A stretch of DNA of 32,000 nucleotides from Acaryochloris marina MBIC11017 (lineage in GTDB: Bacteria > Cyanobacteriota > Cyanobacteriia > Thermosynechococcales > Thermosynechococcaceae), in assembly GCF_000018105.1 (NCBI RefSeq), contig NC_009925.1:420001-452000 (forward strand), read 5' to 3'. The notes below the pieces were generated by a model. That model saw nothing but the letters and a program-made list of their open reading frames with translations, was not told the DNA's origin and did no database searches. The translations under genes were made by a program, and so were the position numbers. Below are positions 2,151 to 32,000 of the stretch, piece by piece (the stretch's first letter is position 1; every line of letters starts with the position of its first letter).

Positions 2151-2231
2151 GCCATCGAGGGGTGTCCCGCGCTGATGCCCCTGCTCAATCTGGGCCAACC
2201 CCTAACGTATTTCTCGGAGGATTCCAAGAAG

Positions 2232-6492: not shown

Positions 6493-6543
6493 TCTCGTCC
6501 TCAAGCCCTGTTTGCTCGTTACCAGCCATCTGTGGGCCAGATC

Positions 6544-8651: not shown

Positions 8652-9743
8652 TTAGCTCGTCATTATCGGAATCGTAGGAATTTCCTTAGACTCGGTTGAA
8701 GCTAGCGTTAAGGAGAAGTGATGGGCATTAACTGAATGCATCACCTGTAGTCCCATCGTGGCCCGATTCAAGAGATCGGCTTCGGTGCGGATGGGTCGTC
8801 CACTGCTATCGAGCAGAGAGTGATTGAAATTAAACCCATTCAAATTGAATGCCATCGTGCCGATGCCTAAAGCGGCAAACCAGATACCGATCGTGGGCAG
8901 TACCGCCAATAGAAAATGAATGGAACGGCTATTACGAAAGGCAATATCAGGGATAAACAAGCGTCCTAGATATCCAGCATGTCCCGCGAGTAAATTATAG
9001 GTGGCTTCCTGTTGGCCAAATTTATACCCCGTATTAACAGATTTCAGGCTAGAGGTTTCCTGAACCAAGCTGGAGGTGACTAAAGAGCCATGCATGGCAC
9101 TGAGGAAGGCTCCACCAAAGACACCGACTACCCCCAACATATGAAACGGATGCATCAAGATATTATGTTCCGCTTGAACCGCCATCATAAAGTGGAAGGT
9201 GCCGGAAATTCCTAGGGGTAACCCTTCGGAGAAGCTTCCTTGTCCCATTGGGTACACCAATAGCACTGCCGTGGCAGCAGCAACTGGGGCAGAAAAAGCC
9301 ATAGCAATCCAGGGACGCATACCCAGACGATAGCTCAACTCCCACTGTCGCCCCAGATAGGTCCAAATAGCGATCAAAAAATGCAAGATGATCAGTTGAT
9401 AAGGCCCTCCGTTGTAGAGCCACTCATCCATCGATGTAGCTTCCCATAAGGGGTATAAGTGTAAACCTATTGCGGCTGAAGTAGGTATCACCGCAGCAGT
9501 AATCACATTACTTCCACCTAGAAGAGAACTGATAATAGGTTCACGAATACCTTCCATATCAACAGAAGGGGCCGCCACCCAGGCGAGCATGAAGGTTATG
9601 GCTGAAACGAATAGGGATGGAATCATCAGTAGGCCAAACCAACCAACATAGAGCCGATTGTGGGTACTGGTAATCCACTCACAAAATTGGTCCCAGGCGG
9701 AAACAGTGGGTAATCTCGATGGAGTTTGAAACGTAGTAGACAT
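8652..9743 (-). CDS. psbA: Photosystem II D1 paralog lacking Mn4CaO5 ligands (rogue/sentinel-type D1)
   Basis: Aligns over its full length with canonical D1 recalled from memory. Retained: Tyr161, Glu189, His190, His198, His215, His272, His332, His337, Ala344. Substituted: Asp170->Glu (GQGSFSEG), Glu333->Ser and Asp342->Thr ([15 protein letters not shown]). AGGAG lies 9 nt upstream of the ATG. Confidence 0.88.
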
Positions 9744-9777
9744 AGTTATTGCTCCTGTTAGCGTGATGGAGTTGAGA

Positions 9778-10209
9778 TTAAGTATTGGGTTTGGGCCCTA
9801 AATGTCCTGGAGTCGTAACTGTAAAGCCAGATGGATAACCCGAAATCGTGTTGAAACCGCACTGACGCCAATGCTGCATGCCACCCGATAAATTGAATAC
9901 CTGAGTGAACCCAGCCTTGAGCAATTGGGCTGCTGCCAGGGGACTACGATGGGATGTTAGACACACCACTACTATGGGCTGGTCCTTAGATAAGGCTTGA
10001 AACCAATCAGGAAGGACCCACCGGTTGATGATGGGGAGTTGGCCGATGAGCAGGCGTAATAAACTGAGATTGATGGCATTAGGGATATGTTCTGCTCGGT
10101 ATTCTCCGACACTGCGAACATCCAGTAGCAGTGGGGGTGGAATGAGTTTGGTGTAGGCCAACGGCGAAACCTGAGTCACCGAAGCGCGGTGTGAATGATA
10201 GTTATACAT
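9778..10209 (-). CDS. Single-domain rhodanese (thiosulfate/persulfide sulfurtransferase)
   Basis: Rhodanese fold motifs are present: [21 protein letters not shown], the active-site loop [10 protein letters not shown] (Cys-X4-Arg) and NLSGGMQHW. It starts 51 nt downstream of the Rieske fusion gene and ends 34 nt upstream of psbA. Confidence 0.85.
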
Positions 10210-10260
10210 AGTCGTAGAAATAGAATTGGGGTGAGAAATGAATGGTCAGTGGTGATGGCG

Positions 10261-11292
10261 CTAGGCCACGGTGCCGAGGGGTTGGGCGTCAACGTAGTCT
10301 TGGATAAAGTGCAGCAGTTGGGGGTGTGCGGCTAGGGGCAGGTCCAGTTTGTGAACTTGGGCCAATAGCTGGTCTGTGGTCCATTGCTGATGAACGGCTT
10401 CGTAGAGCAATGCCATCGCACCAGAGCGTAACCCTCCTTTGCAATGCAAGAGAATGGGTTTGGATAGCTGATCTATGATCGTCAACACTTGTTCAGCCGT
10501 GGCCTCTGAGAGGTCTGCTGGATTAATGGGTAGATTGGCATAGTTCATGCCTGCGCTGTGCACAAGTTGGGACTCATTGATGAGAAAGCCGTCTTCCTGA
10601 GGCGATCTCAAATTCAATACAGACTTAAACCCCAGTTGGGCCGCATCTTGAATCTGGTCAGGGGTTGGCTGGAGCATAGCGACGGAGAGCTGCTCATTGA
10701 TTTGAAGGGTATATTGCATGAGATTTTCCGGTGTAGGGTGGTCATCAAAGGTATCCGCCTTGACCCACCAGGGGCGGTCCCCGGTGCGTGGGTCAAGCTC
10801 GGTCCAAGGCAGAATCCAGATTTGTTCACCTTCAACTTGGACATGCACCAACTTGAGGGGTCGATCGGCAGGACCGCGCACCACGGAACCATCGGCTGCA
10901 AAGCGAGATCCGTGGCAAGGACATTGAAATTGATCGGCAGCACCATTCCAGGGAAATGTGCAGCCTAAATGGGTGCAGTTATCGACGATGCCCCGATCCT
11001 CAATTTGACCTGTGATCGTCAGGGTTAAATAGGTCGGTTCACTATCTAGTCCTGCCACGAGGGCACGAGTGCCAGGCGGTTCTGCCAAGAGTTGACTAGT
11101 GGGGATGGGGTTGCCCAGGGCATCCTTTGCTAGAACCCGCCCCGCCCCTCTGCTGGAGTTTGGGGGTACAAAAACACGACTGATGGGATAGAGGGTTGCA
11201 CCTGCCGTGATGGCTACCGCCGACCCGGTCAAGAAATTGAGAAACCGTCGCCGGGAGAGAGAGGGCTGAGAAATAGATAAACTCTCGTTCAT
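10261..11292 (-). CDS. Fusion protein: Tat-signal PetC-type (cytochrome b6f) Rieske iron-sulfur protein + C-terminal DUF442 (PTP-like sulfurtransferase) domain
   Basis: N-terminal half: [24 protein letters not shown] (twin-arginine signal plus TM helix), AKDALGNPI, Rieske boxes CTHLGC and [12 protein letters not shown], and [14 protein letters not shown], which is a b6f PetC-type C-terminus. C-terminal ~150 aa: [32 protein letters not shown] (DUF442-like HCxxGxRS loop). GGAGA lies upstream of the ATG. Confidence 0.85.
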
Positions 11293-11322
11293 AGAGATTC
11301 TCCGAGCTGAGGGTGGGTAGAG

Positions 11323-11535
11323 TTATTGGGAAAGTTGACGAGCATTAGTGTGAATCCCCAACAATCGATAAATCGGACAGAACCCCAGTAAGGCGGTAAA
11401 GGTTGGAATTGCGGCTGCGATCGCTAACCCCATACCGAGGGTTGAGCCGCTATAGGTGCCTAATCCTAAATAAAGTAGTAATCCACCCAAACCTATTCGA
11501 AACAGGCGATCCATTAAGCCCAGATTTTTGGTCAT
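11323..11535 (-). CDS. DUF2892 / YgaP-like small membrane protein
   Basis: 70 aa. The pattern GLMDRLFRIGLGGLLL...LLGFCPIYRLLGI is typical of the YgaP-like transmembrane domain. A strong AGGAGG lies upstream. This is the first gene of the minus-strand operon. Confidence 0.7.
   Translation of the reverse strand: MTKNLGLMDRLFRIGLGGLLLYLGLGTYSGSTLGMGLAIAAAIPTFTALLGFCPIYRLLGIHTNARQLSQ
11417..11424. repeat. HIP1 octamer GCGATCGC
   Basis: Exact match read in the sequence. Confidence 0.95.
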
Positions 11536-11584: not shown

Positions 11585-11600
11585 ATTATATAACTATATA
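11585..11600 (-). promoter_or_regulatory. Candidate promoter/operator 16-mer TATATAGTTATATAAT (read on the minus strand) upstream of the DUF2892-Rieske-rhodanese-psbA operon
   Basis: Identical at 16/16 positions to 21262-21277 upstream of arsR, in the same orientation relative to the downstream gene. Its 3' hexamer is a consensus -10 TATAAT, 49 nt before ATG 11535. Confidence 0.5.
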
Positions 11601-11854
11601 GTAATTAAAGCAATATATTCTTTAAATGACATTCTGTAAGTCTTGCCAGCCCTATTCTTATTTAGCGGTTTAGACGTTGTATTTGACGACTGTTTGGACT
11701 AAATAAAATTCTCTAAAAGTATCTTTTATGTACTTCAAGACCTTTCTAAGTCTAGATCAGTCTCCTTCAGATTCATCAACAGTATCCTCTGGTGAAAGCG
11801 GAGTTGATGCTGCAAGCAGGAATGGCCTGATGAAATTAAATTTGACTATATTGC

Positions 11855-11870
11855 TATTTAGTTATATATT
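11855..11870 (+). promoter_or_regulatory. Related site TATTTAGTTATATATT on the sqr side of the divergent region
   Basis: Matches the shared 16-mer at 14/16 positions and is oriented toward sqr. It lies 196 nt upstream of ATG 12067. Confidence 0.3.
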
Positions 11871-12066: not shown

Positions 12067-13377
12067 ATGGCTCATATTGTTGTCATTGGAGCAGGATTGG
12101 CAGGATTGCCGACTGCCTATGAGTTGAGGTACCTGTTACCTAGTCAGCATCAAATTACCCTGATCTCCAATACCTCTAAATTCACATTTATTCCATCCCT
12201 TCCTTGGGTCGCGCTAGGGCTGATCCCCTTGGCTAAGATTCAGTTAGAACTGGAGGAGTTGGTGATTCAACAGGGAATAAGATGGCTCCCTGAAGCGGTG
12301 GTTCACCTGAATCCTCGGACTCAAACTGTTTATACAGATTCTCAGTCTTTGGCCTATGACTACGTCGTCATTGCCACCGGAGCCGAGTTAGCCTTGGATA
12401 CGGTATCCGGCCTGGGACCAGAGCAGGGCTTTACCCAGTCGATTTGCAATCCTCACCATGCTTTAATGGCCAACAGTGCTTGGCAAAATTTTTTACAGAA
12501 TCCGGGTCCTTTAGTGGTGGGGGCAGTGCCCGGGGCAAGCTGTTTTGGCCCTGCCTATGAGTTTGCCTTATTAGCCGATTACACTCTTCGCCAGCAAGGG
12601 TTGCGGGATCAAGTTTCCCTTACATTTGTGACACCGGAACCCTATGCGGGGCATTTGGGGATTGGCGGCATGGCAAATTCTAGCCAGCTCGTGACGGAGT
12701 TGATGGCGGCCAGAGACGTGGCAGTTTTGGAGAATACCGCCATCGACTCCGTCACATCTCAGGAGATTATTTTGGCCAATGGCGACGCGGTGCCCTTCCA
12801 GTACGCTATGTTGCTGCCGCAGTTTCGAGGGCCTGGCTTTGTTCGTGAGACAGCGGGGTTAGGGGATACCAAGGGGTTTCTGCCCATATTGCCCACCTAT
12901 CAGCATCCTGTTTTTCCCTCAGTGTTTAGTGCAGGTGTTGTCACTCAATTAGCACCACCAGAGGTAACTCCGATAGCAATCGGGGTGCCAAAAACTGGAC
13001 AAATGGTTGAAGCAATGGGGATGGCAGTGGCTCACAATATTGCCCTGGCCTTAGGGGCCATCTCAGATCAGCCTGTTACCCCCACCTTAGAAGCCATCTG
13101 CTTTGCAGACTTTGGAGATACAGGATTACTCTTTTTGGCGGACCCCGTTCTGCCTGATCCAGTGACGGGACGGCGACGCCGCGCCATTACCCTAGGGGGG
13201 CGTTGGGTGGGTTGGTTGAAAACAGCATTTGAACGCTATTTTCTAGCCAAAATGCGCTGGGGAGCTGCCGTCCCTTGGTTTGAGCGCTTGGGGCTTCGGG
13301 CCGCGGGTTTTTCTTTGTTAGAGGCCGCTCCTTCGACGGAACCTGACTCGGTACGCGAGGACGTCCTGATTCATTGA
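12067..13377 (+). CDS. sqr: Sulfide:quinone oxidoreductase, type I
   Basis: MAHIVVIGAGLAG FAD fold. Colinear with Rhodobacter and Oscillatoria SQR as recalled, including the three conserved Cys contexts TQSIC, GASCFGPAYEF and AICFADFGD, plus GVPKTGQM and ERYFL. ATG 12067 follows GAGAGG. The track start at 12028 is a TTG extension. Confidence 0.93.
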   Translation: MAHIVVIGAGLAGLPTAYELRYLLPSQHQITLISNTSKFTFIPSLPWVALGLIPLAKIQLELEELVIQQGIRWLPEAVVHLNPRTQTVYTDSQSLAYDYVVIATGAELALDTVSGLGPEQGFTQSICNPHHALMANSAWQNFLQNPGPLVVGAVPGASCFGPAYEFALLADYTLRQQGLRDQVSLTFVTPEPYAGHLGIGGMANSSQLVTELMAARDVAVLENTAIDSVTSQEIILANGDAVPFQYAMLLPQFRGPGFVRETAGLGDTKGFLPILPTYQHPVFPSVFSAGVVTQLAPPEVTPIAIGVPKTGQMVEAMGMAVAHNIALALGAISDQPVTPTLEAICFADFGDTGLLFLADPVLPDPVTGRRRRAITLGGRWVGWLKTAFERYFLAKMRWGAAVPWFERLGLRAAGFSLLEAAPSTEPDSVREDVLIH

Positions 13378-16138: not shown

Positions 16139-16762
16139 ATGAATACTCAGAATAACCTGCCACCAAAAGCTCTCTTGGATATTCCTCCCGGATATCTGAA
16201 CATCATGGGATATGTTGACGAATCTGAAGTGAATGGTCCCGGTTGTCGAGCTGTCATCTGGATGCAAGGGTGCCATCGGGCCTGCCCTGGTTGTTTCAAC
16301 CCTGACTCATGGTCGTTTGAAATTAACCAGTTAATCGACGTAAAATCTTTGGTCCAGAATGTTCTCAGCAATCCGCGCCATGAAGGCGTCACTTTTTCTG
16401 GTGGAGAGCCCTTCTGGCAAGCTCCTGCCCTCATTGAACTCGCTCATCAAGTCAAGGCTGCTGGATTAAATGTGATGTCATTTACGGGATTTACGTTGGC
16501 TCAGTTACAGGCAGACTCGGCACCCGTCGGTGCCCAAAATCTGCTGGACCAGTTGGATATCCTCATTGATGGCCCATATATCGAAGTTCTCAAAATTCAC
16601 TCCCCAGATTCGCCTGTTGCATCCAGCAATCAGCAGGTTCATATCTTCAATCCATCTCTCCAAGACAAAATCACGTGGGCGAGTGACCAGCTGGAGATTC
16701 ATATTCAACCAGACGGAAGCCGAACCTTTACGGGGTATCACGGCCAGTTGCTCGGGTCTTAA
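16139..16762 (+). CDS. NrdG-like radical-SAM glycyl-radical activating enzyme (anaerobic RNR activase family)
   Basis: Motifs VNGPGCRAVIWMQGCHRACPGCFNPDSW (CX3CX2C), GVTFSGGEPF and the C-terminal LIDGPYI....SSNQ, which is typical of NrdG. No NrdD or other glycyl-radical enzyme is present in the window. Confidence 0.78.
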   Translation: MNTQNNLPPKALLDIPPGYLNIMGYVDESEVNGPGCRAVIWMQGCHRACPGCFNPDSWSFEINQLIDVKSLVQNVLSNPRHEGVTFSGGEPFWQAPALIELAHQVKAAGLNVMSFTGFTLAQLQADSAPVGAQNLLDQLDILIDGPYIEVLKIHSPDSPVASSNQQVHIFNPSLQDKITWASDQLEIHIQPDGSRTFTGYHGQLLGS

Positions 16763-20188: not shown

Positions 20189-21067
20189 GTAAAGCTCTCA
20201 AGGTACTAATCTGTCAATACACAAACACTGGACAGGACCTAGAGAGCAATGCCTACAGCATATGATAGCGACCTCACCACCCTGCAATGGGAATTACTTG
20301 AGCCTTTGATTCCTGCTGCTAAACCTGGAGGTAGACCTCGCACCACTGATATGCTCAGTGTTCTCAATGCCATTTTTTATCTCGTGGTTACAGGTTGTCA
20401 GTGGAGACAACTACCTCATGATTTTCCCTGTTGGTCAACGGTCTATAGCTATTTTCGAAGGTGGCGCGATGATGGGACTTGGAGTCAAATCAATGAACAT
20501 CTACGCATGCAAGTGCGGGTGAGTGAAGACCGTCATCCCAGTCCCAGTGCCGCTATCTGCGATGCTCAATCGGTCAAAGTCGGCAATCCTCGGTGTCACT
20601 TGATTGGGTTTGATGGTGGGAAAATGGTCAAAGGTCGTAAACGTCATGTGCTCGTTGATACTTTAGGGCTGGTTTTGATGGTGATGGTCACTGCTGCCAA
20701 TATCTCTGACCAACGAGGGGCCAAAATACTGTTTTGGAAAGCTCGACGCCAAGGTGCGAGTTTGTCCCGTCTAGTTCGGATATGGGCCGATGCTGGCTAT
20801 CAAGGACAAGCTTTGATGAAGTGGGTAATGGACCGTTCTCAATATGTCTTGGAAGTGATCAAACGCTCAGATAATCTAGCGGGGTTTCAGGTTGTTTCCA
20901 AACGATGGATTGTAGAACGGACGTTTGGATGGTTGTTGTGGTCTCGACGTCTTAATAAAGATTATGAGGTGCTGACTAGGACGGCTGAAGCGCTTGTTTA
21001 TGTGGCGATGATTCGACTCATGGTTCGAAGGCTAGCGCAGGAGCACTAAAACTTCTCAAACAGCCTC
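20170..21067 (+). mobile_element. Intact IS5-family (IS1031-group-like) insertion sequence, 898 bp
   Basis: Perfect 17-bp terminal inverted repeats GAGGCTGTTTGAGAAGT (20170-20186, and the reverse complement of 21051-21067). A 3-bp direct duplication TCA flanks it (20167-20169 and 21068-20170 side: 21068-21070). It carries a single transposase ORF. Size, GAG ends and the 3-bp DR fit my recollection of the IS1031 subgroup. Confidence 0.85.
20249..21049 (+). CDS. IS5-family DDE transposase
   Basis: 266 aa. N-terminal DLT..QWELLEPLIP...GGRPR..D.....NAIFY...TGCQWR.LP..FP.W.TVY.YF.RW..DG.W. DDE region VDTLG..., IWADAGYQG, VERTFGWL..RRL.KDYE. Confidence 0.9.
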   Translation: MPTAYDSDLTTLQWELLEPLIPAAKPGGRPRTTDMLSVLNAIFYLVVTGCQWRQLPHDFPCWSTVYSYFRRWRDDGTWSQINEHLRMQVRVSEDRHPSPSAAICDAQSVKVGNPRCHLIGFDGGKMVKGRKRHVLVDTLGLVLMVMVTAANISDQRGAKILFWKARRQGASLSRLVRIWADAGYQGQALMKWVMDRSQYVLEVIKRSDNLAGFQVVSKRWIVERTFGWLLWSRRLNKDYEVLTRTAEALVYVAMIRLMVRRLAQEH

Positions 21068-21101: not shown

Positions 21102-21261
21102 CAATTACAATCGCTCTCAATTGGTGACCAGAATACAGATGAGATGCCTTCAAATGACTCTGAATCCTTCCTCGGGCGTGAAAGGGGCAGGGGCGGATCG
21201 AGAATCGACAAAGATCCAAATACTGATCATCACCTGAGAGGAAGATTCATCTATGAAAGGT

Positions 21262-21277
21262 TATATAGTTATATAAT
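21262..21277 (+). promoter_or_regulatory. Candidate autoregulatory promoter/operator TATATAGTTATATAAT upstream of arsR
   Basis: Lies within the palindrome TTATAT-AGTT-ATATAA (21261-21276). It is identical at 16/16 positions to the minus-strand site at 11585-11600. It ends in a consensus -10 TATAAT (21272-21277), 35 nt before ATG 21313. Confidence 0.5.
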
Positions 21278-21312
21278 TGTACTGATAGCCTTCTTTTTAG
21301 TTTAATTTCCTC

Positions 21313-21675
21313 ATGTCCGACATTGTTGATAAACAAGTTTCTCCAGAAGTACTCGTAGCTGTGGCTGACTATTTTAAGGTTCTTTCAGAGGTCAGCCGCT
21401 TGCAGATCCTCAGCAACCTTAGATCAGGCCCCATGACGGTTAATGATCTGGTGGATGCGACAGGTCTTGGACAGGCCAATCTTTCCAAACATTTAAAGGT
21501 GTTGACTCAGGCGGGTCTTCTCTCCCGCACCCCCAGTGGCGTCAGTGCTTACTATGAGATTGTCGATCCACTGGTGTTTGAACTGTGTGAATCAGTGTGT
21601 GATTCCATTAGCGATCGCTTATTGCAGCAGGCACAGAAATTTAATCAATTCAAATCCTTCAGCAAATCGTCATAG
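21313..21675 (+). CDS. ArsR/SmtB-family winged-helix transcriptional regulator
   Basis: Motifs FKVLSEVSRLQILSNL....MTVNDLVDATGLGQANLSKHLKVLTQAGLL.R..G....Y. The only cysteines are Cys92 and Cys96 (ELCESVCD) in the predicted alpha5 helix. Confidence 0.9.
   Translation: MSDIVDKQVSPEVLVAVADYFKVLSEVSRLQILSNLRSGPMTVNDLVDATGLGQANLSKHLKVLTQAGLLSRTPSGVSAYYEIVDPLVFELCESVCDSISDRLLQQAQKFNQFKSFSKSS
21611..21618. repeat. HIP1 octamer GCGATCGC
   Basis: Exact match read in the sequence. Confidence 0.95.
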
Positions 21676-21777: not shown

Positions 21778-22494
21778 ATGCAGTCCCTTAACCAGCTGAT
21801 GGAGTCCTATGCTGCCGGACAGCGAGACTTTGCCCACAGCCAACTTCTCGAAGCAGAAATTGTGAAGGCTGATTTGGCAGGTATTGATCTGAGTCGGGCG
21901 GATCTGCGGCAAGCTCGGCTTGGACGTACCAATTTCAGTCATGGAACGTTTAGGGAGGCAGATTTAAGTGAAGCCCTGCTATGGGGGGCGGATTTAAGCG
22001 GGGCCGATCTTAGCAGCGCAGTATTGCGCGAAGCTGATTTGAGTGGGGCTAAATTAGTCCAGGTTAATCTGGCCAAGGCCAACCTCTACAAAGCCAGCCT
22101 GTGTGGGACTAATCTAAGGCAGGCCAATCTCACGGAGACCATTTTGTATGAGGTGGATTTAAGACCTTCCTTGGATCAGGGAACCGATTTGGGGGAGGCC
22201 GATCTGACCAATGCGGAGTTGAATTATGCCCATCTGAGTGGGGCAACGTTGGCCCACGCTATCTTAGTGGGGGCTAAACTTTGCCGCGCAAACTTGAGTC
22301 AGCAAGGATGGGGGGGACAGGTGCCGACGGATTTAAGGGGAGCTGACCTCCAACAGGCTGATTTGAGCTATGCAGATTTGCGTGGTGCTTGGTTACAAGA
22401 GGCCAACCTCCGCCGAGCGGATTTAACGGGGACCGATTTAGGGGGTGCCCAATTGACAGGGGCCATTATGCCGGATGGGCGGACTTATACCTAA
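21778..22494 (+). CDS. Pentapeptide-repeat protein
   Basis: 238 aa, almost entirely A(D/N)L(S/R)xA-type pentapeptide repeats (ADLSEALLWGADLSGADLSSAVLREADLSGAKL...). Confidence 0.85.
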   Translation: MQSLNQLMESYAAGQRDFAHSQLLEAEIVKADLAGIDLSRADLRQARLGRTNFSHGTFREADLSEALLWGADLSGADLSSAVLREADLSGAKLVQVNLAKANLYKASLCGTNLRQANLTETILYEVDLRPSLDQGTDLGEADLTNAELNYAHLSGATLAHAILVGAKLCRANLSQQGWGGQVPTDLRGADLQQADLSYADLRGAWLQEANLRRADLTGTDLGGAQLTGAIMPDGRTYT

Positions 22495-22513: not shown

Positions 22514-23581
22514 TTAGTGAATTTCGTCACGCAGGTGTTCCGCATTGAGGGGTGCAATCAGATAGAGACGTAGAAAATCTCCAATGATGCCTAATAGGTG
22601 GGGGGCTTTACGTAGCCACTTGAGTAGTTTGGGGGGATTCGCTGCGTCAATGGCTTTGAGTTGAAGGTTGCGATCGCTACAACGATGCAGTCGAGGAAAA
22701 AACTGAGGATGGTCCACGTTGAGGTACACCGGGAAGGCTCGCGCGGCGGTTTCATTGGTTTTTCGAATCACTTCCGTATCAAAGTCCGTGGGGTCGAGGC
22801 CCAACATTTCATAGAAGGTATGGCGCTCCTGCACGGTCAAAGAATGGGTGACAAACACCGTGAGTAGAAAGAAGCGACTCCACAATCTCGATTTCCAGGT
22901 ATTCCACAGTTGGGGTTGAGATCGCACCAATGCCTTAAAGATATCGCCATGACGATTTTCATCCTGACACCAGCTTTCGAAGTAGTTAAACAAGGGATAA
23001 AAGTGATGTTCGGGGTGCTGTTCTAAATGCCGATAAATAATGATGTAGCGCCAATAACCAATTTTTTCAGAGAGATAAACCGTATAGAGCACCCATTCAA
23101 TGGGGAAAAAGGTGTAAGTCCGCTGTTTCGTAAGCTTGCCTAAATCCAGTGAGAGCTTAAAATCCCCCATGGACTTATTGAGAAAGCCTGCATGACGCGC
23201 TTCATCCCGTGCCATTAAGCTAAAAATCTCTGCCAGTAACGGGCTTTTCCCTTTTAGTCGCCGGGATAATTCCTTAAAGAGTAAAAACCCTGAAAATTCA
23301 GAGACGCAGGATCGCTCCAGATAGTCTAAAAATGCTTCTCGCTCTTCACCTGTGATGTGATCCCAAGACTGCTCAAAGGCGTCATCTCGAACAAAGTGGA
23401 AACGGTTATAGTCGGCCTTCATCTCCGCCAACATCGCTTCTAAACCGTCTGCTTGGGCGGATAAATCTAACGCTGCGGCCTTTTCAAAATCGGTGATGTA
23501 GAAGCGAGGAGTCAAAATATTCTCTTGAACATCCTGCTTGACAACAGACGGTGAGCTGGGTTGAGGGGCGGTTTGAACCAT
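22514..23581 (-). CDS. acsF: Mg-protoporphyrin IX monomethyl ester oxidative cyclase (AcsF/ChlA family di-iron enzyme)
   Basis: Motifs ILTPRFYITDF, SCVSEFSGFLLFKEL, ARDEARHAGFLN, YLSEKIGYWRYI and CQDENRHGDF (two ExxH di-iron motifs). 355 aa. Confidence 0.95.
   Translation of the reverse strand: MVQTAPQPSSPSVVKQDVQENILTPRFYITDFEKAAALDLSAQADGLEAMLAEMKADYNRFHFVRDDAFEQSWDHITGEEREAFLDYLERSCVSEFSGFLLFKELSRRLKGKSPLLAEIFSLMARDEARHAGFLNKSMGDFKLSLDLGKLTKQRTYTFFPIEWVLYTVYLSEKIGYWRYIIIYRHLEQHPEHHFYPLFNYFESWCQDENRHGDIFKALVRSQPQLWNTWKSRLWSRFFLLTVFVTHSLTVQERHTFYEMLGLDPTDFDTEVIRKTNETAARAFPVYLNVDHPQFFPRLHRCSDRNLQLKAIDAANPPKLLKWLRKAPHLLGIIGDFLRLYLIAPLNAEHLRDEIH
22670..22677. repeat. HIP1 octamer GCGATCGC
   Basis: Exact match read in the sequence. 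Confidence 0.95.
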
Positions 23582-23798
23582 GGGGATCTGCTCTCTTATG
23601 CTCTAAAGTGGAGTGCTAAATAATTTTATAGCCATGAAGTAGTTTAAAGGGGTATTTACAAGAAACACCTTGCATTATGGTTTTTTAATAAAAAGAGACA
23701 TGGCTTAAAAGTCCTTTAAACAGAACTTATGGTGTGGGTAGACAATATTTCGGTAAAAATTTTTGCTATTTCAATTAAACAACCATATAGTTATTATT

Positions 23799-23833
23799 AA
23801 ATTACTCTTATTGAACTGTTCCTTGAGTAATTT
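23799..23833. promoter_or_regulatory. 9-bp perfect inverted repeat AAATTACTC-N17-GAGTAATTT in the acsF/heme-oxygenase divergent region
   Basis: Read directly from the sequence. It lies about 70 nt upstream of the heme oxygenase ATG (23903). It could be an operator or a 5'-UTR hairpin. Confidence 0.3.
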
Positions 23834-23902
23834 AGGTCTCAAACCTTTGTGATGACAGGAGTGCCTAGTGCACACCCATTTGCCCAGGAGGTCAAATTCG
23901 TT

Positions 23903-24631
23903 ATGAGCTGTAATTTAGCCTGTGCCCTCCGTCAAGGGACCCAGCATGCCCACGTTCTTGCTGAGAACACAGCCCTGATGAAGGCCTGGATGAAGGGCAT
24001 GGTCGCCTTAGACGCGTTTCGAGAGCTACTGGTGAACCTCTATTTTGTCTATGGCAGTTTGGAGCAGCAGCTCTATTCCCATCAAACTCATCCAGTCTTG
24101 GGTCAGATTTACTGGCCTTCTCTGAATCGTCAGGATAATCTGCGTCAGGACTTGGTGTATTTTTACGGCCAGGATTGGCAGCAGCATATCCGTCCTCGGA
24201 CAGCGGGTTTGCAATATGCGGCTCGCATTGGCGTTGTAGGTCTTACGGCTCCAGAACGGTTGGTTGCTCATGCCTATGTTCGCTATATGGGAGATTTATC
24301 GGGAGGACAACAGCTTCAAAGAATTGCTCGAACCGCCTTATCGTTACCCCTCAAACAAGGGACACGATTATACGATTTTGAGGATTTGCCTTCCGTAGAG
24401 GCCAAAAAGCGATTTAAACAGCGCTATCGGGATGCTTTAAATCATTTACCCATTGGACCAGAGACAGTTCAGCAGATTGTGGAGGAAGCGAATCTCGCCT
24501 TTCGGCTGACTTGCGACTTGATGCAGTCCCTAGAAGCCGATTTGCAAGCAGCTCTGGGAGAAGAAGCGTTCCAGTCCATTCTTCAAGGGAATCGTCCTCC
24601 CCTCCATCCTGCCCGCCCCTCCGTGGCCTGA
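23903..24631 (+). CDS. Heme oxygenase (context suggests the low-oxygen HO2-type isoform)
   Basis: Motifs LRQGTQHAHVLAEN (proximal His region), YVRYMGDLSGGQ and the general HO fold pattern. ATG 23903 follows AGGAGG. The track start at 23849 is an extension. Confidence 0.88.
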   Translation: MSCNLACALRQGTQHAHVLAENTALMKAWMKGMVALDAFRELLVNLYFVYGSLEQQLYSHQTHPVLGQIYWPSLNRQDNLRQDLVYFYGQDWQQHIRPRTAGLQYAARIGVVGLTAPERLVAHAYVRYMGDLSGGQQLQRIARTALSLPLKQGTRLYDFEDLPSVEAKKRFKQRYRDALNHLPIGPETVQQIVEEANLAFRLTCDLMQSLEADLQAALGEEAFQSILQGNRPPLHPARPSVA

Positions 24632-24728
24632 TTGACAGGAAGCAAACCGTGACATACCAGACCCGCCGCCCATTGTTGGGAGAGGTGGGCTACCATCCCC
24701 CACTATTACTGAATAAGGTCAGTCCCCT

Positions 24729-26123
24729 ATGGAATTACTGTCTACAGTTCGCTGCGATCTCGGATTACTGAATAAGTATGATCAACCCTTGCCGCGCTAT
24801 ACCAGCTATCCACCCGCCACAGAATTTAGCTCCGAATTGACCCCTGAGCGGTTCCAGCAAGCCCTGGCAAAGGGAAATGATCAGCAAATTCCCCTATCCC
24901 TTTATTGCCATATTCCTTTTTGCGAAACCCCTTGCTTTTTTTGTGGGTGCAATACGGTGATCACTCAGCGTAAACAGGTGGCCGATCCCTATCTGCAATA
25001 CCTGATCCGGAATATTCGGCAAGTGGCTGAACAAGTGGGAAGCGATCGCAACGTTCACCAACTCCACTGGGGGGGAGGAACGCCTAATTATTTAAGTTGG
25101 CCCCAAATTGAGCTGCTCTGGAATGCCTTGCAAGATGCCTTCTCTTTCGATCCGGCGGCAGAAATATCTATTGAGGTGAATCCCTGCTATATCGATCGCA
25201 ACACGGTATTTTTTCTGCGAGAGCTGGGGTTCAACCGGATTAGCTTTGGCATTCAAGATTTTGATCCGCAGGTTCAGATTGCTGTCAACCGGATTCAGTC
25301 TGAGGAACTGCTGTTTAACGTGATCAGCTGGATTCAAGAAGCGGACTTTGACAGTGTAAATGTGGACTTAATCTATGGCTTGCCCCATCAGACGGTGACG
25401 ACCTTTGCCAACACAGTACAAAAAACGATTCAGCTTAATCCTGACCGGATTGCTGTGTTCAACTTTGCTTATATGCCCCAGTTAATCCCCGTCCAGCGCC
25501 AATTGCCTGCCCATGCCCTTCCCCACAAAGCAGAAAAGCTAGAGATGTTGCAGCAGACCATCGACCAGCTGGAGGGCAATGGATATCGCTTTATTGGGAT
25601 GGATCATTTTGCTAAACCCAAGGATGAGTTGGCTTTAGCCCAAACAGCAGGACAGCTACACCGAAACTTTCAGGGATATACGACTAAACCGGAGTCGGAT
25701 TTACTGGGTTTTGGGCTCTCGGCCATCAGTATGCTCCAGGATGTTTATACCCAAAACCATAAACGCCTCAAGGATTATTACCATGCCTTAGACACCACCC
25801 CATTCCCCATTGCCAAAGGGGTGGGGTTAAGTGAGGATGATCAGGTGCGTCGAGCTGTGATTATGGAACTGATGTGCCAGTTTCAGCTGTCGCAGGTAGC
25901 GCTTGAAGAAAAGTACCAGTTGAAATTTGACCCAGATTTTGAGCAATATTTCGCATCTGAAAAGACTGCCCTGCAAGCGTTGGCAGCAGATGGTCTGGTG
26001 GAGTTATCTCCTAATCAGATTCAGGTGACACCCACTGGACGCTTACTGATTCGCAATATTGCAGCGGTATTCGATATCTATTTACAATCTCACGCTGATC
26101 AACGTTTCTCACAATCGATTTAG
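24729..26123 (+). CDS. hemN: Oxygen-independent coproporphyrinogen III oxidase (radical SAM)
   Basis: Motifs PRYTSYPPA, LSLYCHIPFCETPCFFCGCN (CX3CX2CXC), HWGGGTPN and ISFGIQDFD. 464 aa. Confidence 0.95.
   Translation: MELLSTVRCDLGLLNKYDQPLPRYTSYPPATEFSSELTPERFQQALAKGNDQQIPLSLYCHIPFCETPCFFCGCNTVITQRKQVADPYLQYLIRNIRQVAEQVGSDRNVHQLHWGGGTPNYLSWPQIELLWNALQDAFSFDPAAEISIEVNPCYIDRNTVFFLRELGFNRISFGIQDFDPQVQIAVNRIQSEELLFNVISWIQEADFDSVNVDLIYGLPHQTVTTFANTVQKTIQLNPDRIAVFNFAYMPQLIPVQRQLPAHALPHKAEKLEMLQQTIDQLEGNGYRFIGMDHFAKPKDELALAQTAGQLHRNFQGYTTKPESDLLGFGLSAISMLQDVYTQNHKRLKDYYHALDTTPFPIAKGVGLSEDDQVRRAVIMELMCQFQLSQVALEEKYQLKFDPDFEQYFASEKTALQALAADGLVELSPNQIQVTPTGRLLIRNIAAVFDIYLQSHADQRFSQSI
25042..25049. repeat. 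HIP1 octamer GCGATCGC
   Basis: Exact match read in the sequence. Confidence 0.95.
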
Positions 26124-27138: not shown

Positions 27139-29445
27139 ATGACTGAAGACTTTGTAACCTCATCGCCTCAGCATTCACAGTCCTGGCAGCAAGCCATTCT
27201 AGATAGTGCCGATTTCGTTATTGTTTCAACAGATATTAATGGGTTAATTCAAACCCTAAATGCAGGAGCATTAAAACAATTTGGCTATTCACCTGAGGAA
27301 ATCATTGATAGAGTCACCCCAATCATCTTTCATGACCCAGAAGAAGTCGAGCAGCGGGCGCAAGTCCTCTCCCATGAGTTGGGCCATGCCATTGAACCAG
27401 GTATGGAGACCCTTATCGTCAAAGCACGTATGGGGATGGTCGATGAAAATATCTGGACCTTGATTCGCAAAGATCACAGTCGGTTCCCCGTTCGCTTATC
27501 TGTTACAGCACTTAGGAATGATTTAGGCCATTTAACAGGGTTTCTCGGGATTGGCAAAGATATTACTGCGCAACAAGCTGCTGAAGCCTCTCTAGTCGAA
27601 AGCGAAGCGCGATTCTCAGCCGCGTTTCAAAATGCTCCTATAGGCATGGCTTTAGTGTCTCCCAGTGGTCAGTGCCTAAGAGTGAATCATGCCCTAGCTC
27701 ATTTACTGGGATATCCCCAAACCAAACTGATGGATCTCATCCTCACTGAGATGATCCATCCCAAAGATCGATCCATAGAAGAAACGAACCGACTACGACT
27801 TGTTGCAAGAGAGATTGGCAACTACTGCTTAGAGCTACGCTGTCTTCATCAGCAGGGGCATGAGGTATGGGTTTTGATGAATGTATCTCTGGTCAATGGC
27901 CAAGAGGTTTACCCTCCCTACTGCATTGTCCAAGTACAAGATATTACCAGGCGCAAACAAGCAGAAGCACAACTCCAGCGCCTCAACGCCAATCTGGAGC
28001 AACTGGTTGAGGAACGGACTCGCCAACTCAAAGAAGCGATTGAAACCACTGAAATCGCCAATCAAGCCAAAAGCCGATTTATCGCCAATATGAGCCATGA
28101 GTTTCGCACGCCTCTCAACGGCATCATGGGTTTTAGTCAACTCTTGCTTCAAGATCGTCGCATTACGTCAGATCAGCAATCTAACCTCAATGTCATCCTT
28201 CGCAGTGGTGAGCACTTACTCTCGCTGGTCAACGAAGTCATTACCCTCTCCAAGATTGAAGCAGGAATGCTTGCCTATGAGTCCAAAGATGTCAATCTGC
28301 ACCATCTTTGTGAGGGGGTGGAAGACTTATTATCCCTACAGGCGAATTCCAAAGACATTCAGTTTCAAATTCATATCGCTCCTGACGTTCCCCAATACGT
28401 GAGAACAGATGCTAAAAAACTACGGCAAATCTTGATTAACTTACTGGGTAATGCCTTGAAGTTTACGAAACGAGGCAGTGTCGTGTGTCAGGTGCAGTGG
28501 CGGCCTTCGGCACCGGAGCGCTCTGCCCATGAATTACATTTCATCATTCAAGATACAGGTCCAGGGATTCCTGGGCATTTACTACCTCAACTTTTTGAAC
28601 CCTTTGCTCAAGACCCGTTGAATCGTGAGACATTTGGTGGCATTGGCTTGGGGCTAACCATTTGCCAAAGATTTATCCATCTGATGAAGGGGGACATTTC
28701 CATTGAGAGTGTTGAGGGGCAAGGAACAACCGTTAGTTTTTACATTCAAGTTGAATCAGGTGAGCCTGTTCTAGAACCAGCAATATCTGAGACAACCGTT
28801 GAGGGTCTTGCAGAGAATACTCCCTCCTATCGCGTTTTAGTCGTAGAAGATTATCCTGATAACCGCGAGATTTTGCTCATGATGCTTGAAGTAGTGGGGT
28901 TTGAGGTCAAAGAGGCTGTGAATGGCCAAGAGGCAGTGGACCTTAACCGAACATGGCAACCCCATTTAATTTGGATGGATTTACAGCTGCCTGTATTAAA
29001 TGGCCTGGAGGCTACTCAATTAATCAAATCCCAGAATCCAAATCCACCTGTCATCATTGCCATCACCGCCCAGGCGCTGGAATCTGACGAAGTGAAAGCG
29101 CTCAAAGCTGGGTGCGATGACTATCTTCGTAAACCCTATCAAGCCGCTCAAGTTTTTGAGAAAATGGCTCAACATTTAGATATCACCTATCGTTATAAAA
29201 CGTCCAATTCATCTCATACTTCAGCAGATCCGATTTCTCTCTCGGCAGATGAGTTAGCCAACATGCCCCCTTCCTGGATACAGCTTCTGTATGATGCTGC
29301 CATTATGTTGGATGAAGATATGCTTGATCTCTTGCTTAGAGACATTCCTGATGACCAGCACTCCCTTAAATCTTCTTTGGAGTATCTAATGGCCACTTAT
29401 CAATATGACGTCATTATGGAGAAGGCTCAAGCGGTTTTGAGATAG
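27139..29445 (+). CDS. Hybrid sensor histidine kinase / response regulator (PAS-PAS-HisKA-HATPase-REC plus a C-terminal ~85-aa tail)
   Basis: Two PAS modules (each ending ..GIGKDITAQ and ..[11 protein letters not shown]), a coiled coil, the H-box [18 protein letters not shown], the N/G boxes [19 protein letters not shown] and GGIGLGLTI, and a receiver domain [12 protein letters not shown]...IWMDLQLP...KPY. Confidence 0.9.
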
Positions 29446-30110
29446 TTAACGACGTGCCAACCTTTGGTCAGGGACTACGCGGGTCAACAAAATCTAACAA
29501 TGGGAAAATCTGTGAGCATTGCTGAGCTGTTCTGGGTGTCAGAATATAGAATGCACAGAATACCCAACACTCAGTGAACCCGAATATCCTAGCGGCCTGG
29601 TAAAACGTTGAGACTTTCCTCAATGTCCGTTTGAGACATAATTATGATGGATCTGCTTTTGGATATGGCATGAGATCCAGCCACAGCTCCAAAGAAGATT
29701 GCTGTTTGGATGCTGACGACAGCCACTTGCATCTGTAACCTACTTTTTGCAGGTGCAATAAACGCCAAATGAGGGCTTAAAAAGGGCTTGAATTACATTG
29801 AATAATCATCAAAATACTGATCAAAGCCAGAAAACGGCTTTTTTCGGTTTATTCGAATTTATCGTTATTGATAATTACAGTGAGTGAAATTTCAAGATCT
29901 GGTGGCTAACGAAGTATCAGCCTTTGAGGTTTCATGCATTTGTCAGGCGTTGTCAAGTTCTAGCATCACGCTGTCTGGTTTATTCCCAAAACGTTGAGTA
30001 CCTGATTGCTCTGTAAACATTGATCAACTGCTCATTGTCTTCAAGCCGATGGTGCTTTGAATTATCCTACCTGCAGCCAACTCACTATCAGCCTGTGTGC
30101 ATAACGCTCT

Positions 30111-30142
30111 TTATATAGCTAAATAGATATATGGCTATATAA
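30111..30142. promoter_or_regulatory. Perfect 9-14-9 inverted repeat TTATATAGC-N14-GCTATATAA upstream of the RND pump gene
   Basis: Read directly from the sequence. The half-sites resemble the TATATAG / TATATAAT halves of the 16-mer shared by 11585-11600 and 21262-21277. The right arm overlaps a TATAAT (30138-30143), 32 nt before ATG 30176. Confidence 0.4.
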
Positions 30143-30175
30143 TTTAATTAGACTGAATTGCGATTCCTCTTCGTT

Positions 30176-32000
30176 ATGGTCCACTCCTCTGTTGTTGCTC
30201 CGTCGCATAAATTGAGCCTTGTGGGTCGGATTACGGCTTACTTTATCAACTCTCAAGTGACGGTTTTGCTGATTGCTGCCCTTGTTCTGTTTGGAGTTGG
30301 GGCAGCCGTCTTCACCCCGCAAGAAGAAAATCCTCAAATTGTGGTTCCAGCGGCTGAGGTTATCCTGCCTTATCCCGGTGTTTCTGCGGAGGTGGTAGAG
30401 AATATGGTCACTAACCCCATAGAGGCTAAGTTGCGAGAACTCACAGGAGTGGAGCATCTCTATTCCGTCTCCCAAAACTCAGGGGCCAAAATTACTGTGC
30501 AGTATTTTGTGGGGGAAGACTGGGAAGATTCTCTCTTCAAACTGCAAAATCATCTCTACAATCATCAAGATCTACTGCCCCCAGAGGCGTCCTATCTCGT
30601 CAAACCAGTGATTATCGATGATGTTCCTATTGTGACCCTGACGTTGACAGGGAAAGGCTATACCGATAACCAGCTTCGTCGAGTGGGAGAGCGACTTCTC
30701 AATGATTTACGTAGTATTCCAGACACCGCCAATTTGACGATGGTGGGTGGGAAACCCCGTGCCATTCGGGTGGACTTGGACCCCGATAAACTGGCTAGTT
30801 ATCGCCTCTCCCCTGCTCAGATTAGTCAGCAACTCCAGGTGGAGAATGTCCAACTGCCCACGGGGGATGTATCTGTTGGAGAAACCCGCCTATTTTTAGA
30901 AGGGGGCAATCTGTTTCAGTCTGCCGCAGATGTGGGGGAGATTATGGTGGGCTTTGGCACTGCCACGGATCAGGGCCATCCCCGTCCCATTTACCTCAAA
31001 GATGTGGCGGCGGTCGTGGATGATTTTGGCGATCTCACCACGGTATCGCGAATTCATTATCGACCAGACTGGGATATTGCCAATCCCTATCCAGACCCCA
31101 GCAGTCAGGCTCAAGGGGAATTTATCACCCAGCCTGCGATGACGATTGGAATCGCTAAGAAAAAAGGCACGAATGCGGTTACCGTTGCCCAGCAGATTTT
31201 TGATCGAGTGGATGATCTCCAATCCCAACTGCCACCGGGGGTGCAAATTGCCGTTACCCGGAATGATGGTCAGACCGCTGCCAGGGCCGTCGGCGATCTC
31301 TACCAAAGTTTGCTGATCGCCATTGCCACTGTCGTGGGGCTACTTGTGATGTTCCTGGGGTGGCGGGAAGCTGCCATTGTCGCCTTTGTGATTCCCCTGA
31401 CCTTAGCGGGGACACTAGCCGTAGGCTGGTTAGCGGGACAGACGATTAATCGTATTACCCTGTTTGCCCTGATCTTGGCCTTGGGGACGTTGGTGGATGA
31501 TGCGATCGCAGTTACCGAGAATATTCACCGCCACTTTGAATCTGTGCTGCCATCTGACCGACGGCAGAAAACGGCTGCCGCCATTAGCGCTGTTAATGAA
31601 CTGGGCACCCCGATCCTGTTATCGACAATCACCGTTATATTGGCCTTCTTACCGATGAGATTTGTGACGGGAATGATGGGACCATATATGGGACCGATTC
31701 CCTTTAATGTGCCGGTGGCGATGCTGATTAGCACAACCCTAGCCGTAACGGTGACGCCTTTTTTAGCCCTACGTTTAATTCAGCTACAGCCCCACTCAAA
31801 GACATTGCCCAGTATTCAACAGACCCGCATTTATCGCGGCTATCGCTGGGTGATGGCTCCCCTCCTTGACTCCGCGTCCCGACGACGATTTGTATTGCTG
31901 GGGGTGACGGGATTACTCTTAGCAACAATGATCTTACCCCTGACTCAGGCGGTGCGGTTTCGGATGCTGCCGAAAGCCGATAAAGATACCTTCCTGGTGC
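30176..32000 (+). CDS. RND efflux transporter permease (AcrB/CzcA superfamily), 3'-truncated by the window edge
   Basis: Not in the ORF track because no stop is reached. My manual translation from ATG 30176 is open for 608 codons: MVHSSVVAPSHKLSLVGRITAYFINSQVTVLLIAALVLFGVGAAVFTPQEENPQIVVP..., then a periplasmic porter region, then the TM cluster WREAAIVAFVIPLTLAG...INRITLFALILALGTLVDDAIAVTENI...ELGTPILLSTITVILAFLPM. Confidence 0.9.
   Translation, partial: MVHSSVVAPSHKLSLVGRITAYFINSQVTVLLIAALVLFGVGAAVFTPQEENPQIVVPAAEVILPYPGVSAEVVENMVTNPIEAKLRELTGVEHLYSVSQNSGAKITVQYFVGEDWEDSLFKLQNHLYNHQDLLPPEASYLVKPVIIDDVPIVTLTLTGKGYTDNQLRRVGERLLNDLRSIPDTANLTMVGGKPRAIRVDLDPDKLASYRLSPAQISQQLQVENVQLPTGDVSVGETRLFLEGGNLFQSAADVGEIMVGFGTATDQGHPRPIYLKDVAAVVDDFGDLTTVSRIHYRPDWDIANPYPDPSSQAQGEFITQPAMTIGIAKKKGTNAVTVAQQIFDRVDDLQSQLPPGVQIAVTRNDGQTAARAVGDLYQSLLIAIATVVGLLVMFLGWREAAIVAFVIPLTLAGTLAVGWLAGQTINRITLFALILALGTLVDDAIAVTENIHRHFESVLPSDRRQKTAAAISAVNELGTPILLSTITVILAFLPMRFVTGMMGPYMGPIPFNVPVAMLISTTLAVTVTPFLALRLIQLQPHSKTLPSIQQTRIYRGYRWVMAPLLDSASRRRFVLLGVTGLLLATMILPLTQAVRFRMLPKADKDTFLV
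31502..31509. repeat. HIP1 octamer GCGATCGC
   Basis: Exact match read in the sequence. Confidence 0.95.

Follow-up and report, generated by a model that had tools for sequence, protein, structure and literature searches.

The stretch of DNA analysed here (the window) comprises 32,000 nucleotides of Acaryochloris marina MBIC11017 (contig NC_009925.1, positions 420,001 to 452,000 of the forward strand) and includes arsR (AM1_0463, 21313..21675, plus strand), which encodes an ArsR/SmtB-family regulator of 120 amino acids. On the minus strand, the operon AM1_0451-0448 (8652..11535) encodes a DUF2892/YgaP-like transmembrane protein, a Rieske-DUF442 protein, a rhodanese and a 'rogue' D1 protein (psbA), while sqr, specifying sulfide:quinone oxidoreductase (SQR), lies on the plus strand (AM1_0452, 12067..13377, from the annotated start). 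Genes for low-oxygen tetrapyrrole synthesis occupy 22514..26123 and comprise acsF (22514-23581, minus strand), the heme oxygenase gene ho (23903-24631, plus strand) and hemN (24729-26123, plus strand); acrB (AM1_0471, 30176..32000, plus strand), for an AcrB-type RND transporter, continues past the end of the window. The element of interest is a 16-mer, TATATAGTTATATAAT, which is found in the arsR promoter at 21262..21277 on the plus strand and again, exactly, in the promoter of the DUF2892-Rieske-rhodanese-psbA operon at 11585..11600 on the minus strand. The results presented below identify it as part of an operator shared by at least five promoters of this gene island, to which AM1_0463 itself probably binds.

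A first-pass annotation of this DNA had drawn attention to the repeated 16-mer, and our analysis bears out its description. The two copies are the only exact ones in the window, each faces its downstream gene (correctly assigned as ArsR, 21313-21675, and as the minus-strand DUF2892/Rieske/rhodanese/psbA operon, 11535-8652), and each ends in TATAAT, 35 nt from the arsR start codon (21277 to the ATG at 21313) and 49 nt from that of the operon (11585 to the ATG at 11535). The arsR copy joins the half-site TAGTTAT to this −10-like hexamer (21272-21277). The same annotation had described the DNA as AT-rich, which does not hold for the window (G+C about 49%). When up to three mismatches were allowed, we observed eight matches in the window against 0.15 expected (100 dinucleotide shuffles, with a maximum of 2). 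Near-copies missed by the first-pass annotation are found in front of sqr (11855-11870, two mismatches), between acsF and ho (23774-23789) and upstream of acrB, where TATATGGCTATATAAT (30128-30143, two mismatches, with TATAAT at its end) is accompanied by an adjacent copy at 30110-30125. Identity between the arsR and DUF2892 operon promoters is limited to a core of 16-18 bp and the flanks cannot be aligned, so the 16-mer is a discrete shared element; a duplicated promoter as the source of the repeat is ruled out on the same grounds. An Rfam scan of the window gave no match, and hence the repeat is not explained by an RNA element.

ArsR homologues of 60-80% identity are widespread in cyanobacteria, and 80 genomic loci around arsR homologues were fetched. 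Octamers of the TAGTTAT type occur in 27-30 of the 80 arsR upstream regions, compared with about one expected. We derived a matrix by expectation-maximisation from 68 non-redundant arsR upstream regions, up to three of which are perhaps from Acaryochloris metagenome-assembled genomes. The procedure returned the inverted repeat ATAACTA-WW-TAGTTAT, both half-sites being recovered without a palindrome constraint, and the 16-mer corresponds to the right half of this repeat together with the −10 box. The repeat is present 10-100 nt upstream of the arsR orthologues in 55 of the 80 loci, which at the level of sequence supports the earlier suggestion that the regulator controls its own gene through an inverted repeat overlapping the promoter. 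Its axis lies 4 bp upstream of that of the palindrome TTATAT-AGTT-ATATAA, in which the first-pass annotation had seen the 16-mer embedded. The latter palindrome is indeed perfect in the arsR copy, but it is imperfect elsewhere and differs from the dyad that is conserved across species, and we therefore ruled it out as the functional symmetry. Scanning the window with the matrix gave seven sites of at least 14 bits, six of them intergenic and located in five promoter regions, whereas the shuffle expectation was a mean of 0.32 (largest 3) at the lower threshold of 12 bits. The matrix finds the promoters of the window even though it was trained almost wholly on other species.

The best operator of the window, TATAACTATATAGTAATT (11589..11606, 25.7 bits), precedes the DUF2892 operon and agrees with the perfect palindrome ATAACTATATAGTTAT at 15 of 16 positions. 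The sqr operator, TATTGCTATTTAGTTATA (11849..11866, 22.5 bits), takes up the spacer of a predicted promoter, TTGACT-17-TATATT (11842-11870). The divergent promoter region of acsF and ho-hemN contains AACAACCATATAGTTATT (23778..23795, 19.7 bits), and two to three overlapping operators, 8 bp apart, precede acrB (30114..30143), scoring 19.5 bits at 30114-30131, 14.4 bits at 30122-30139 and 9.4 bits at 30130-30147. At arsR the operator is AAAGGTTATATAGTTATA (21256..21273, 14.4 bits), which matches at 7/7 positions in the right half and 3/7 in the left, and is overlapped by a weak match at 21264-21281 (11.7 bits). In all five promoters, the right half-site TAGTTAT abuts a −10-like hexamer facing the gene, a geometry that fits repression. 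A sigma-70 scan identified a good −35/−10 pair for sqr but none at the arsR or DUF2892 promoters, which have a perfect TATAAT only. The seventh match (14.5 bits, 27272-27289) falls inside a histidine kinase gene that is absent from the published differential-expression list, and is probably due to chance. Four promoters, all but acsF/ho, also have secondary matrix matches at a distance of exactly 8 bp from the main operator (11581/11589, 11841/11849, 21256/21264 and 30114/30122/30130); this spacing may reflect internal TATA periodicity or overlapping sites for two dimers.

Expression of the island was taken from published RNA-seq data, given as control versus microoxic reads per kilobase per million (RPKM), where microoxia was obtained by evacuation and N2 bubbling to <0.2% O2 and sulfide was not added (PMC5295598 and its Table S3). 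Gene positions in that table are those of the window plus 420000, for instance 441313-441675 for ArsR, 433377 for the end of sqr and 450176 for the start of acrB. The RNA-seq data that exist for A. marina cover microoxic and hyperoxic conditions. The transcription units of all five motif-bearing promoters are co-induced, by 10- to 800-fold. In the DUF2892 operon, RPKM values rise from 1 to 1691 for AM1_0451, from 5 to 604 for AM1_0450, from 12 to 772 for AM1_0449 and from 23 to 711 for psbA. The corresponding values are 4 and 173 for sqr, 9 and 1078 for acsF, 17 and 1132 for ho, 4 and 685 for hemN, and 14 and 396 for acrB. ArsR itself rises 10-fold, from 257 to 2635. Operator score tracks fold induction and is inversely related to basal level (Spearman coefficient about 0.9, hand calculation, n=5), which is what one would expect of a repressor whose autoregulatory site is leaky.

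Random scatter of the motif, including within genes, would speak against a regulatory element. In the 1.39 Mb formed by the 80 loci and the window, 121 of the 127 sites of at least 14 bits are instead intergenic and six lie inside open reading frames (ORFs), although ORFs account for 81% of the sequence. Shuffled intergenic DNA gave 3.75 sites at this threshold, and at 18 bits or more the comparison is 53 observed against 0.3. We scored association with gene families, over the same sequence, by the presence of a site within 400 nt upstream. Sites precede arsR in 55 of 82 cases, psbA in 13 of 17, hemF in 12 of 14, acsF in 13 of 27, sqr and the Rieske-DUF442 gene in 7 of 11 each, a metallo-beta-lactamase (persulfide-dioxygenase-like) gene in 6 of 7 and NMO in 6 of 10; rhodanese-containing operons are also preceded by sites, while no member of the unrelated neighbouring gene families has one within this distance. 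The link to sulfide and low-oxygen genes anticipated from the window alone thus holds, with sites in front of sqr, Rieske-DUF442, persulfide-dioxygenase-like, psbA, hemF and acsF genes. The label of a sulfide regulon is too narrow, because the documented inducer is N2-sparged microoxia without added sulfide. Likewise, the proposal that the two promoters sharing the 16-mer belong to one regulon is supported by the matrix, the conservation and the co-induction, but the regulon extends beyond these two. The cis-element and its regulon are well supported, and we hold this part of the interpretation with high confidence.

In the Nostocales, psbA (D1'), hemF, acsF and NMO make up the regulon near arsR, and sqr is not part of it. 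Judging by the numbering of accessions and by a microarray table, BAB75442.1, the orthologue in Anabaena PCC 7120, appears to be all3743, and would as such adjoin alr3742, the low-oxygen psbA0. Where psbA stands next to an arsR orthologue in other cyanobacteria, its product retains the Mn-cluster ligands, contains HERNAHNFPLDLA and is D1'-like. The A. marina product AM1_0448 (8652-9743, minus strand) carries D170E, E333S and D342T and lacks Mn4CaO5 ligands, which identifies it as a 'rogue' D1. One operator therefore serves different D1 classes according to lineage. Two paralogous ArsR genes occur in one island in two of the loci, L070 (16604-17020) and L072 (12244-12585), where one is of the All3743 type beside psbA and the other stands beside sqr. 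The sqr-side protein is of the Cx3C type in L070, with its alpha2 cysteine shifted by one residue, and SuoR-like in L072. This arrangement suggests subfunctionalisation between low-oxygen and sulfide targets.

The dyad is also found outside the cyanobacteria. An unbiased metagenome scan for the perfect palindrome ATAACTATATAGTTAT returned 120 contigs. On at least six of them, five with a G+C content of 57-70%, the start of an ArsR-family gene is no more than 30 nt from the palindrome; one more contig shows a partial ArsR-like match at a distance of about 10 nt. It is very unlikely that a 16-mer palindrome of this composition would arise by chance in such GC-rich organisms. Neighbouring genes on the ArsR-adjacent contigs include a persulfide dioxygenase-DUF442 fusion, a pair encoding a membrane-fusion protein and AcrB, and a rhodanese-YgaP gene. 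About 112 of the 120 contigs have neither an ArsR-family gene beside the site nor a regulon homologue; these appear to be chance or unrelated occurrences, the ArsR-adjacent ones alone being informative. On two contigs of 63% G+C (L125, site at 1253; L193, site at 389), a distant ArsR gene has ATAACTATATAGTTAT within 12 nt of its start codon. The proteins score 33-36 bits to the family profile and have the recognition helix SQPxVSKHLxVL, and the dyad may accordingly be an operator common to a broader slice of the ArsR family.

The AM1_0463 protein matches Pfam HTH_5 (E 2.4e-13) and passes the generic 'metalloregulator ArsR/SmtB' model NF033788 (78.8 bits, cut-off 55), while no more specific model was passed. 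Its AlphaFold2 model (pLDDT 88.7) has the canonical ArsR topology, alpha1-alpha2-alpha3-alpha4-beta1-beta2-alpha5, in which alpha2 ends at position 35 and alpha5 holds both C92 and C96. The closest structures in a Foldseek search were SmtB (1r23, E 1.5e-6), Rv0081, ArsR and CzrA, with SqrR and BigR no closer. The recognition helix, GQANLSKHLKVL, conforms to the family pattern (G/S)QAN-x-SKHL, in which Q54, A55, N56, S58, K59 and H60 are invariant in 121 of 121 relatives. C96 is present in all 121 relatives and C92 in 120, and these are the only cysteines of AM1_0463. A third cysteine, C35, is found in 97 of 121 relatives (80%); AM1_0463 has Asn35 at this position.

The nearest described system is that of SuoR (Sll5035) of Synechocystis, which is reported to be an ArsR-type repressor of suoS (sqr)-suoR and suoC-suoT on plasmid pSYSM, to bind and repress the suoS/suoC promoter, and to respond to sulfide and arsenite (Nagy et al. 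2014, as summarised in PMC4307280). When pSYSM was scanned with our matrix, the best match in 35 kb was TACAACTATGTAGTTATA (17.0 bits), which falls in the suoS/suoC divergent promoter; this intergenic region (L201, 16393-16435) reads TTGACG, then ACAACTATGTAGTTAT, then TATAAT. The two systems therefore have in common the same dyad, sqr as a target and an ArsR-family winged helix. SuoR and AM1_0463 are 34% identical over 88 residues (E 3e-18), and the SuoR recognition helix, SQANVSKHLQIL, is near-identical to that of AM1_0463. The 40 plasmid records listed, out of 50 matches at E ≤ 1e-8, did not include SuoR; this suggests that it is a distant paralogue of AM1_0463 rather than an orthologue. 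The cysteines differ as well, since SuoR has one at the C92 position and another at 35 but is without the second alpha5 cysteine, C96, whereas AM1_0463 is without the alpha2 cysteine. The AM1_0463 regulon is far larger than that of SuoR, adding the rogue D1, PetC-DUF442, rhodanese, acsF/ho/hemN and the RND pump, and the documented inducer of the island, microoxia, differs from that of the SuoR system.

A similar regulon logic is seen with the persulfide-sensing ArsR-family repressors BigR (Xylella/Agrobacterium), SqrR (Rhodobacter capsulatus) and YgaV (Escherichia coli), which share a fold with AM1_0463 (Foldseek TM-scores normalised to target, 0.74-0.79). Like the putative regulator described here, they are thiol-based, autoregulated and linked to hypoxia and sulfide, a likeness that concerns the proteins and their targets. 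Recurrent elements in both settings are SQR, persulfide dioxygenase, DUF442, rhodanese and YgaP-type membrane domains. AM1_0463 fails the BigR equivalog model NF040642 (30.5 bits against a cut-off of 155), and profiles of PDB structures give 37-40 bits for the persulfide sensors compared with 52-55 bits for SmtB and ArsR. These scores place it outside the BigR/SqrR equivalog, though in its working we liken it to SuoR, BigR and SqrR. The sensor pair of SqrR is made up of alpha2 Cys41 and alpha5 Cys107, whereas the AM1_0463 family has an invariant Cx3C within alpha5; from alignment offsets, C35 may lie about two residues from SqrR Cys41.

Taken together, the data favour a model in which AM1_0463 is the autoregulated, SuoR-like repressor of the shared operator, and we put the probability of this overall interpretation at roughly 0.7. 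An AM1_0463 dimer would bind ATAACTA-WW-TAGTTAT through the invariant recognition helix, at sites that cover −10 box and spacer in five or more promoters of the 32-kb island. Its targets would be its own promoter (a weak site, with leaky expression), the DUF2892-Rieske/DUF442-rhodanese-rogue D1 psbA operon (the strongest), sqr, acsF/ho-hemN and acrB. In air, the bound protein would occlude RNA polymerase. Under microoxic or sulfidic conditions the sensor would be modified, AM1_0463 would leave the DNA and the whole set, arsR included, would be derepressed. It is probable that AM1_0463 binds the operator and represses, because of its invariant helix, the palindromes adjacent to ArsR genes on GC-rich contigs and the dyad in the SuoR-regulated promoter. 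The sensor is most likely the Cys92-x3-Cys96 pair in alpha5, joined by alpha2 Cys35 in most relatives. As to the signal, we tentatively prefer reactive sulfur or thiol redox because of the analogy with SuoR, SqrR and BigR, while a direct O2 sensor or one built on a cofactor ranks below it and seems rather unlikely.

Several observations sit less comfortably with this model. The site at the arsR promoter is weak (14.4 bits, left half 3/7), and the RNA-seq 5' end of arsR (21295) lies 18 nt downstream of TATAAT, for which reason the −10 assignment there is putative. AM1_0463 is without the alpha2 cysteine that SqrR and BigR use, and since N2 sparging induced the island with no sulfide added, O2 or redox state is at least as good a candidate for the signal as sulfur. 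A paralogue of 63% identity (P0039) in A. marina-group genomes could bind the same sites, and ChlR (AM1_1552) may explain part or all of the induction of acsF-ho-hemN. All 80 loci were selected around arsR, so that the regulon as surveyed is the part of it near arsR.

Four alternatives were considered. The first retains both site and regulator but has an O2-labile Fe-S cluster or a metal ion bound by the dimer through its four alpha5 cysteines (C92 and C96 of each protomer), which would make the protein sense oxygen or redox state directly instead of reactive sulfur. Alpha5 is the dimer-interface helix of the ArsR family, and the Cx3C pair is located where the alpha5 metal ligands of SmtB lie; C92 and C96 are conserved, whereas the alpha2 cysteine is dispensable. 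Induction at <0.2% O2 by N2 bubbling and the Nostocales regulon without sqr near arsR are also in keeping with such a sensor. However, a Cx3C on one face of a helix can equally form an intra-helix di- or polysulfide, the non-cyanobacterial relatives with the same operator stand in a sulfur-stress context (persulfide dioxygenase, DUF442, rhodanese-YgaP, RND), and the homologue SuoR is reported to respond to sulfide and arsenite (PMC4307280). We regard an Fe-S or metal-bound O2 sensor as possible but rather doubtful. In another reading, AM1_0463 might be a conventional arsenic or metal sensor and the island a metal(loid) resistance regulon, as could be read from the pass of NF033788, the RND efflux pump in the regulon and the reported arsenite response of SuoR (PMC4307280). 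This is very unlikely. By sequence and SmtB alignment, AM1_0463 has neither the alpha3 Cys-x-Cys As(III) site nor the alpha5 D-x-H-x10-H-x2-E ligand set, for although D85 aligns with D104, the H106 and H117 positions are Leu and Arg. The SmtB/CzrA alpha5 metal sensors, which are the closest solved structures, are likewise dimeric repressors with promoter-overlapping inverted repeats and alpha5 sensing residues, but in AM1_0463 their ligands are replaced by C-x3-C. The operators of SmtB/CzrA-type proteins are 12-2-12 inverted repeats. There are no ars genes in the window and no hint of metal homeostasis among the regulon genes, the targets being photosynthesis, tetrapyrrole and sulfide-oxidation genes that are induced by microoxia without added metal.

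It is also conceivable that a factor other than AM1_0463 recognises the palindrome, for example ChlR, the 63%-identical paralogue or a further low-oxygen regulator, and that arsR is simply one of the targets. In Synechocystis, ChlR (Sll1512) is established as the activator of psbA1 and of chlAII-ho2-hemN; its A. marina gene, AM1_1552, is induced 3.8-fold in microoxia. Its targets (chlAII/acsF, ho2, hemN and a low-oxygen psbA) and its inducing condition overlap with those of AM1_0463, but it is a MarR-type [4Fe-4S] protein encoded by a separate gene, and an activator rather than a repressor. Its motif, TTMCC-N3/4-GGWAA, is unrelated to ATAACTA-WW-TAGTTAT and had no match with up to one mismatch in the four relevant intergenic regions. 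Paralogues do exist (P0039 and the second arsR in L070 and L072), yet one with the same recognition helix would represent cross-talk and not a different mechanism. The palindrome stands directly upstream of ArsR genes on GC-rich non-cyanobacterial contigs that have none of the rest of the regulon, and also in the promoter reportedly bound by SuoR (PMC4307280), which makes a different principal binder improbable. Finally, the two promoters could share the 16-mer by coincidence, as a chance product of AT-rich promoter sequence without regulatory function. It is of low complexity, with TATATA repeats and a consensus −10 box, and the AT content of intergenic DNA exceeds the average for the window. 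Chance is nevertheless effectively ruled out by the excess over shuffles, both of near-copies in the window and of intergenic sites overall, by conservation across cyanobacterial orders and beyond, and by the restriction of the sites to a few gene families.

The remaining genes of the island were also inspected. AM1_0450 (10261-11292, minus strand) combines a PetC-equivalog Rieske protein, including the membrane anchor, with a C-terminal DUF442/TIGR01244 sulfurtransferase (Blh N-terminal-like) domain; this fusion recurs beside sqr in other loci, and Rieske-only forms of 177 amino acids also exist. A gene for a pentapeptide protein lies on the minus strand beside the psbA operon. On the plus strand, sqr is followed by genes for an RND membrane-fusion protein, two proteins of unknown kind, an nrdG-like radical-SAM protein, an NMO-type oxidoreductase, a thioredoxin-reductase-like flavoprotein and an ankyrin protein, and a co-induced run of genes extends from sqr to about 19277. 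The radical-SAM activase, AM1_0457 (16139-16762, Fer4_12), is co-induced, and no nrdD was found in the window. Between the ankyrin gene and arsR there is an IS4/IS5-family transposase gene, AM1_0462 (20249-21049), which is induced 2.2-fold only; this barely induced gene interrupts the co-induced run and implies that arsR has its own promoter. Directly downstream of arsR, the HetL-type pentapeptide-repeat gene AM1_0464 (21778..22494, plus strand) is probably co-transcribed with it, and its RPKM rises from 6 to 381 (55-fold induction). AM1_0464 passes the NCBI HetL equivalog model (319 bits, cut-off 260), even though Acaryochloris forms no heterocysts. The family occurs within 10 kb of arsR in 45 of the 80 loci and has its own operator in nine. 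The hetL gene of Anabaena PCC 7120, which we take to be all3740, would sit close to all3743 and alr3742. Between hemN and acrB there are a NUDIX gene and then the gene for the histidine kinase, a PAS hybrid protein. Fermentation-type genes (adhE, phosphoketolase, pyruvate kinase and ackA, 6-7740) form a cluster just upstream of the island; ackA is induced about 6-fold in microoxia, and none of adhE, xfp and pyk turned up in the differential list. The pyk ORF of 664 amino acids has a TTG start, overlaps the end of xfp and matches the pyruvate kinase barrel from residue 409 onward only.

Little is understood of how cyanobacteria move from oxygenic to sulfide-tolerant or anoxygenic modes and back, or of how the microaerobic D1' and rogue D1 isoforms are controlled in species other than Synechocystis. 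A 2016 genome paper remarked that the closeness of psbA, sqr and arsR hinted at 'linked transcriptional regulation' and went no further (PMC5061849), and a 2026 review names ChlR alone for low-oxygen control, and RexT as an ArsR-type redox regulator (PMC13421787). In the literature on SuoR/sll5035, AM1_0463, all3743 and alr3742, we found no description of the subfamily, its operator or its regulon. The present analysis supplies the cis-element, ATAACTA-WW-TAGTTAT, and a candidate regulator family, represented by AM1_0463 and, in Anabaena PCC 7120, by all3743 beside psbA0 (alr3742) and near hetL. A broader view, which is speculative and on balance unlikely, is that the All3743/AM1_0463 subfamily could be the missing general low-oxygen switch of cyanobacteria. 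Its dimer would then carry an O2-labile cofactor, or a redox-active tetrathiol site formed by the alpha5 Cx3C pairs, and would directly repress the microaerobic D1 isoform and the low-oxygen tetrapyrrole isoenzymes, acting in most lineages in parallel to ChlR or instead of it. Where present, the set for sulfide-driven anoxygenic photosynthesis (SQR, the PetC variant and rogue D1) would also be repressed. Within the narrower model that we prefer, in which AM1_0463 acts as a SuoR-like repressor of the shared operator, the predicted regulon would tie SQR, persulfide handling, the PetC-sulfurtransferase fusion, D1 variants and the O2-sparing enzymes of tetrapyrrole synthesis to one switch.

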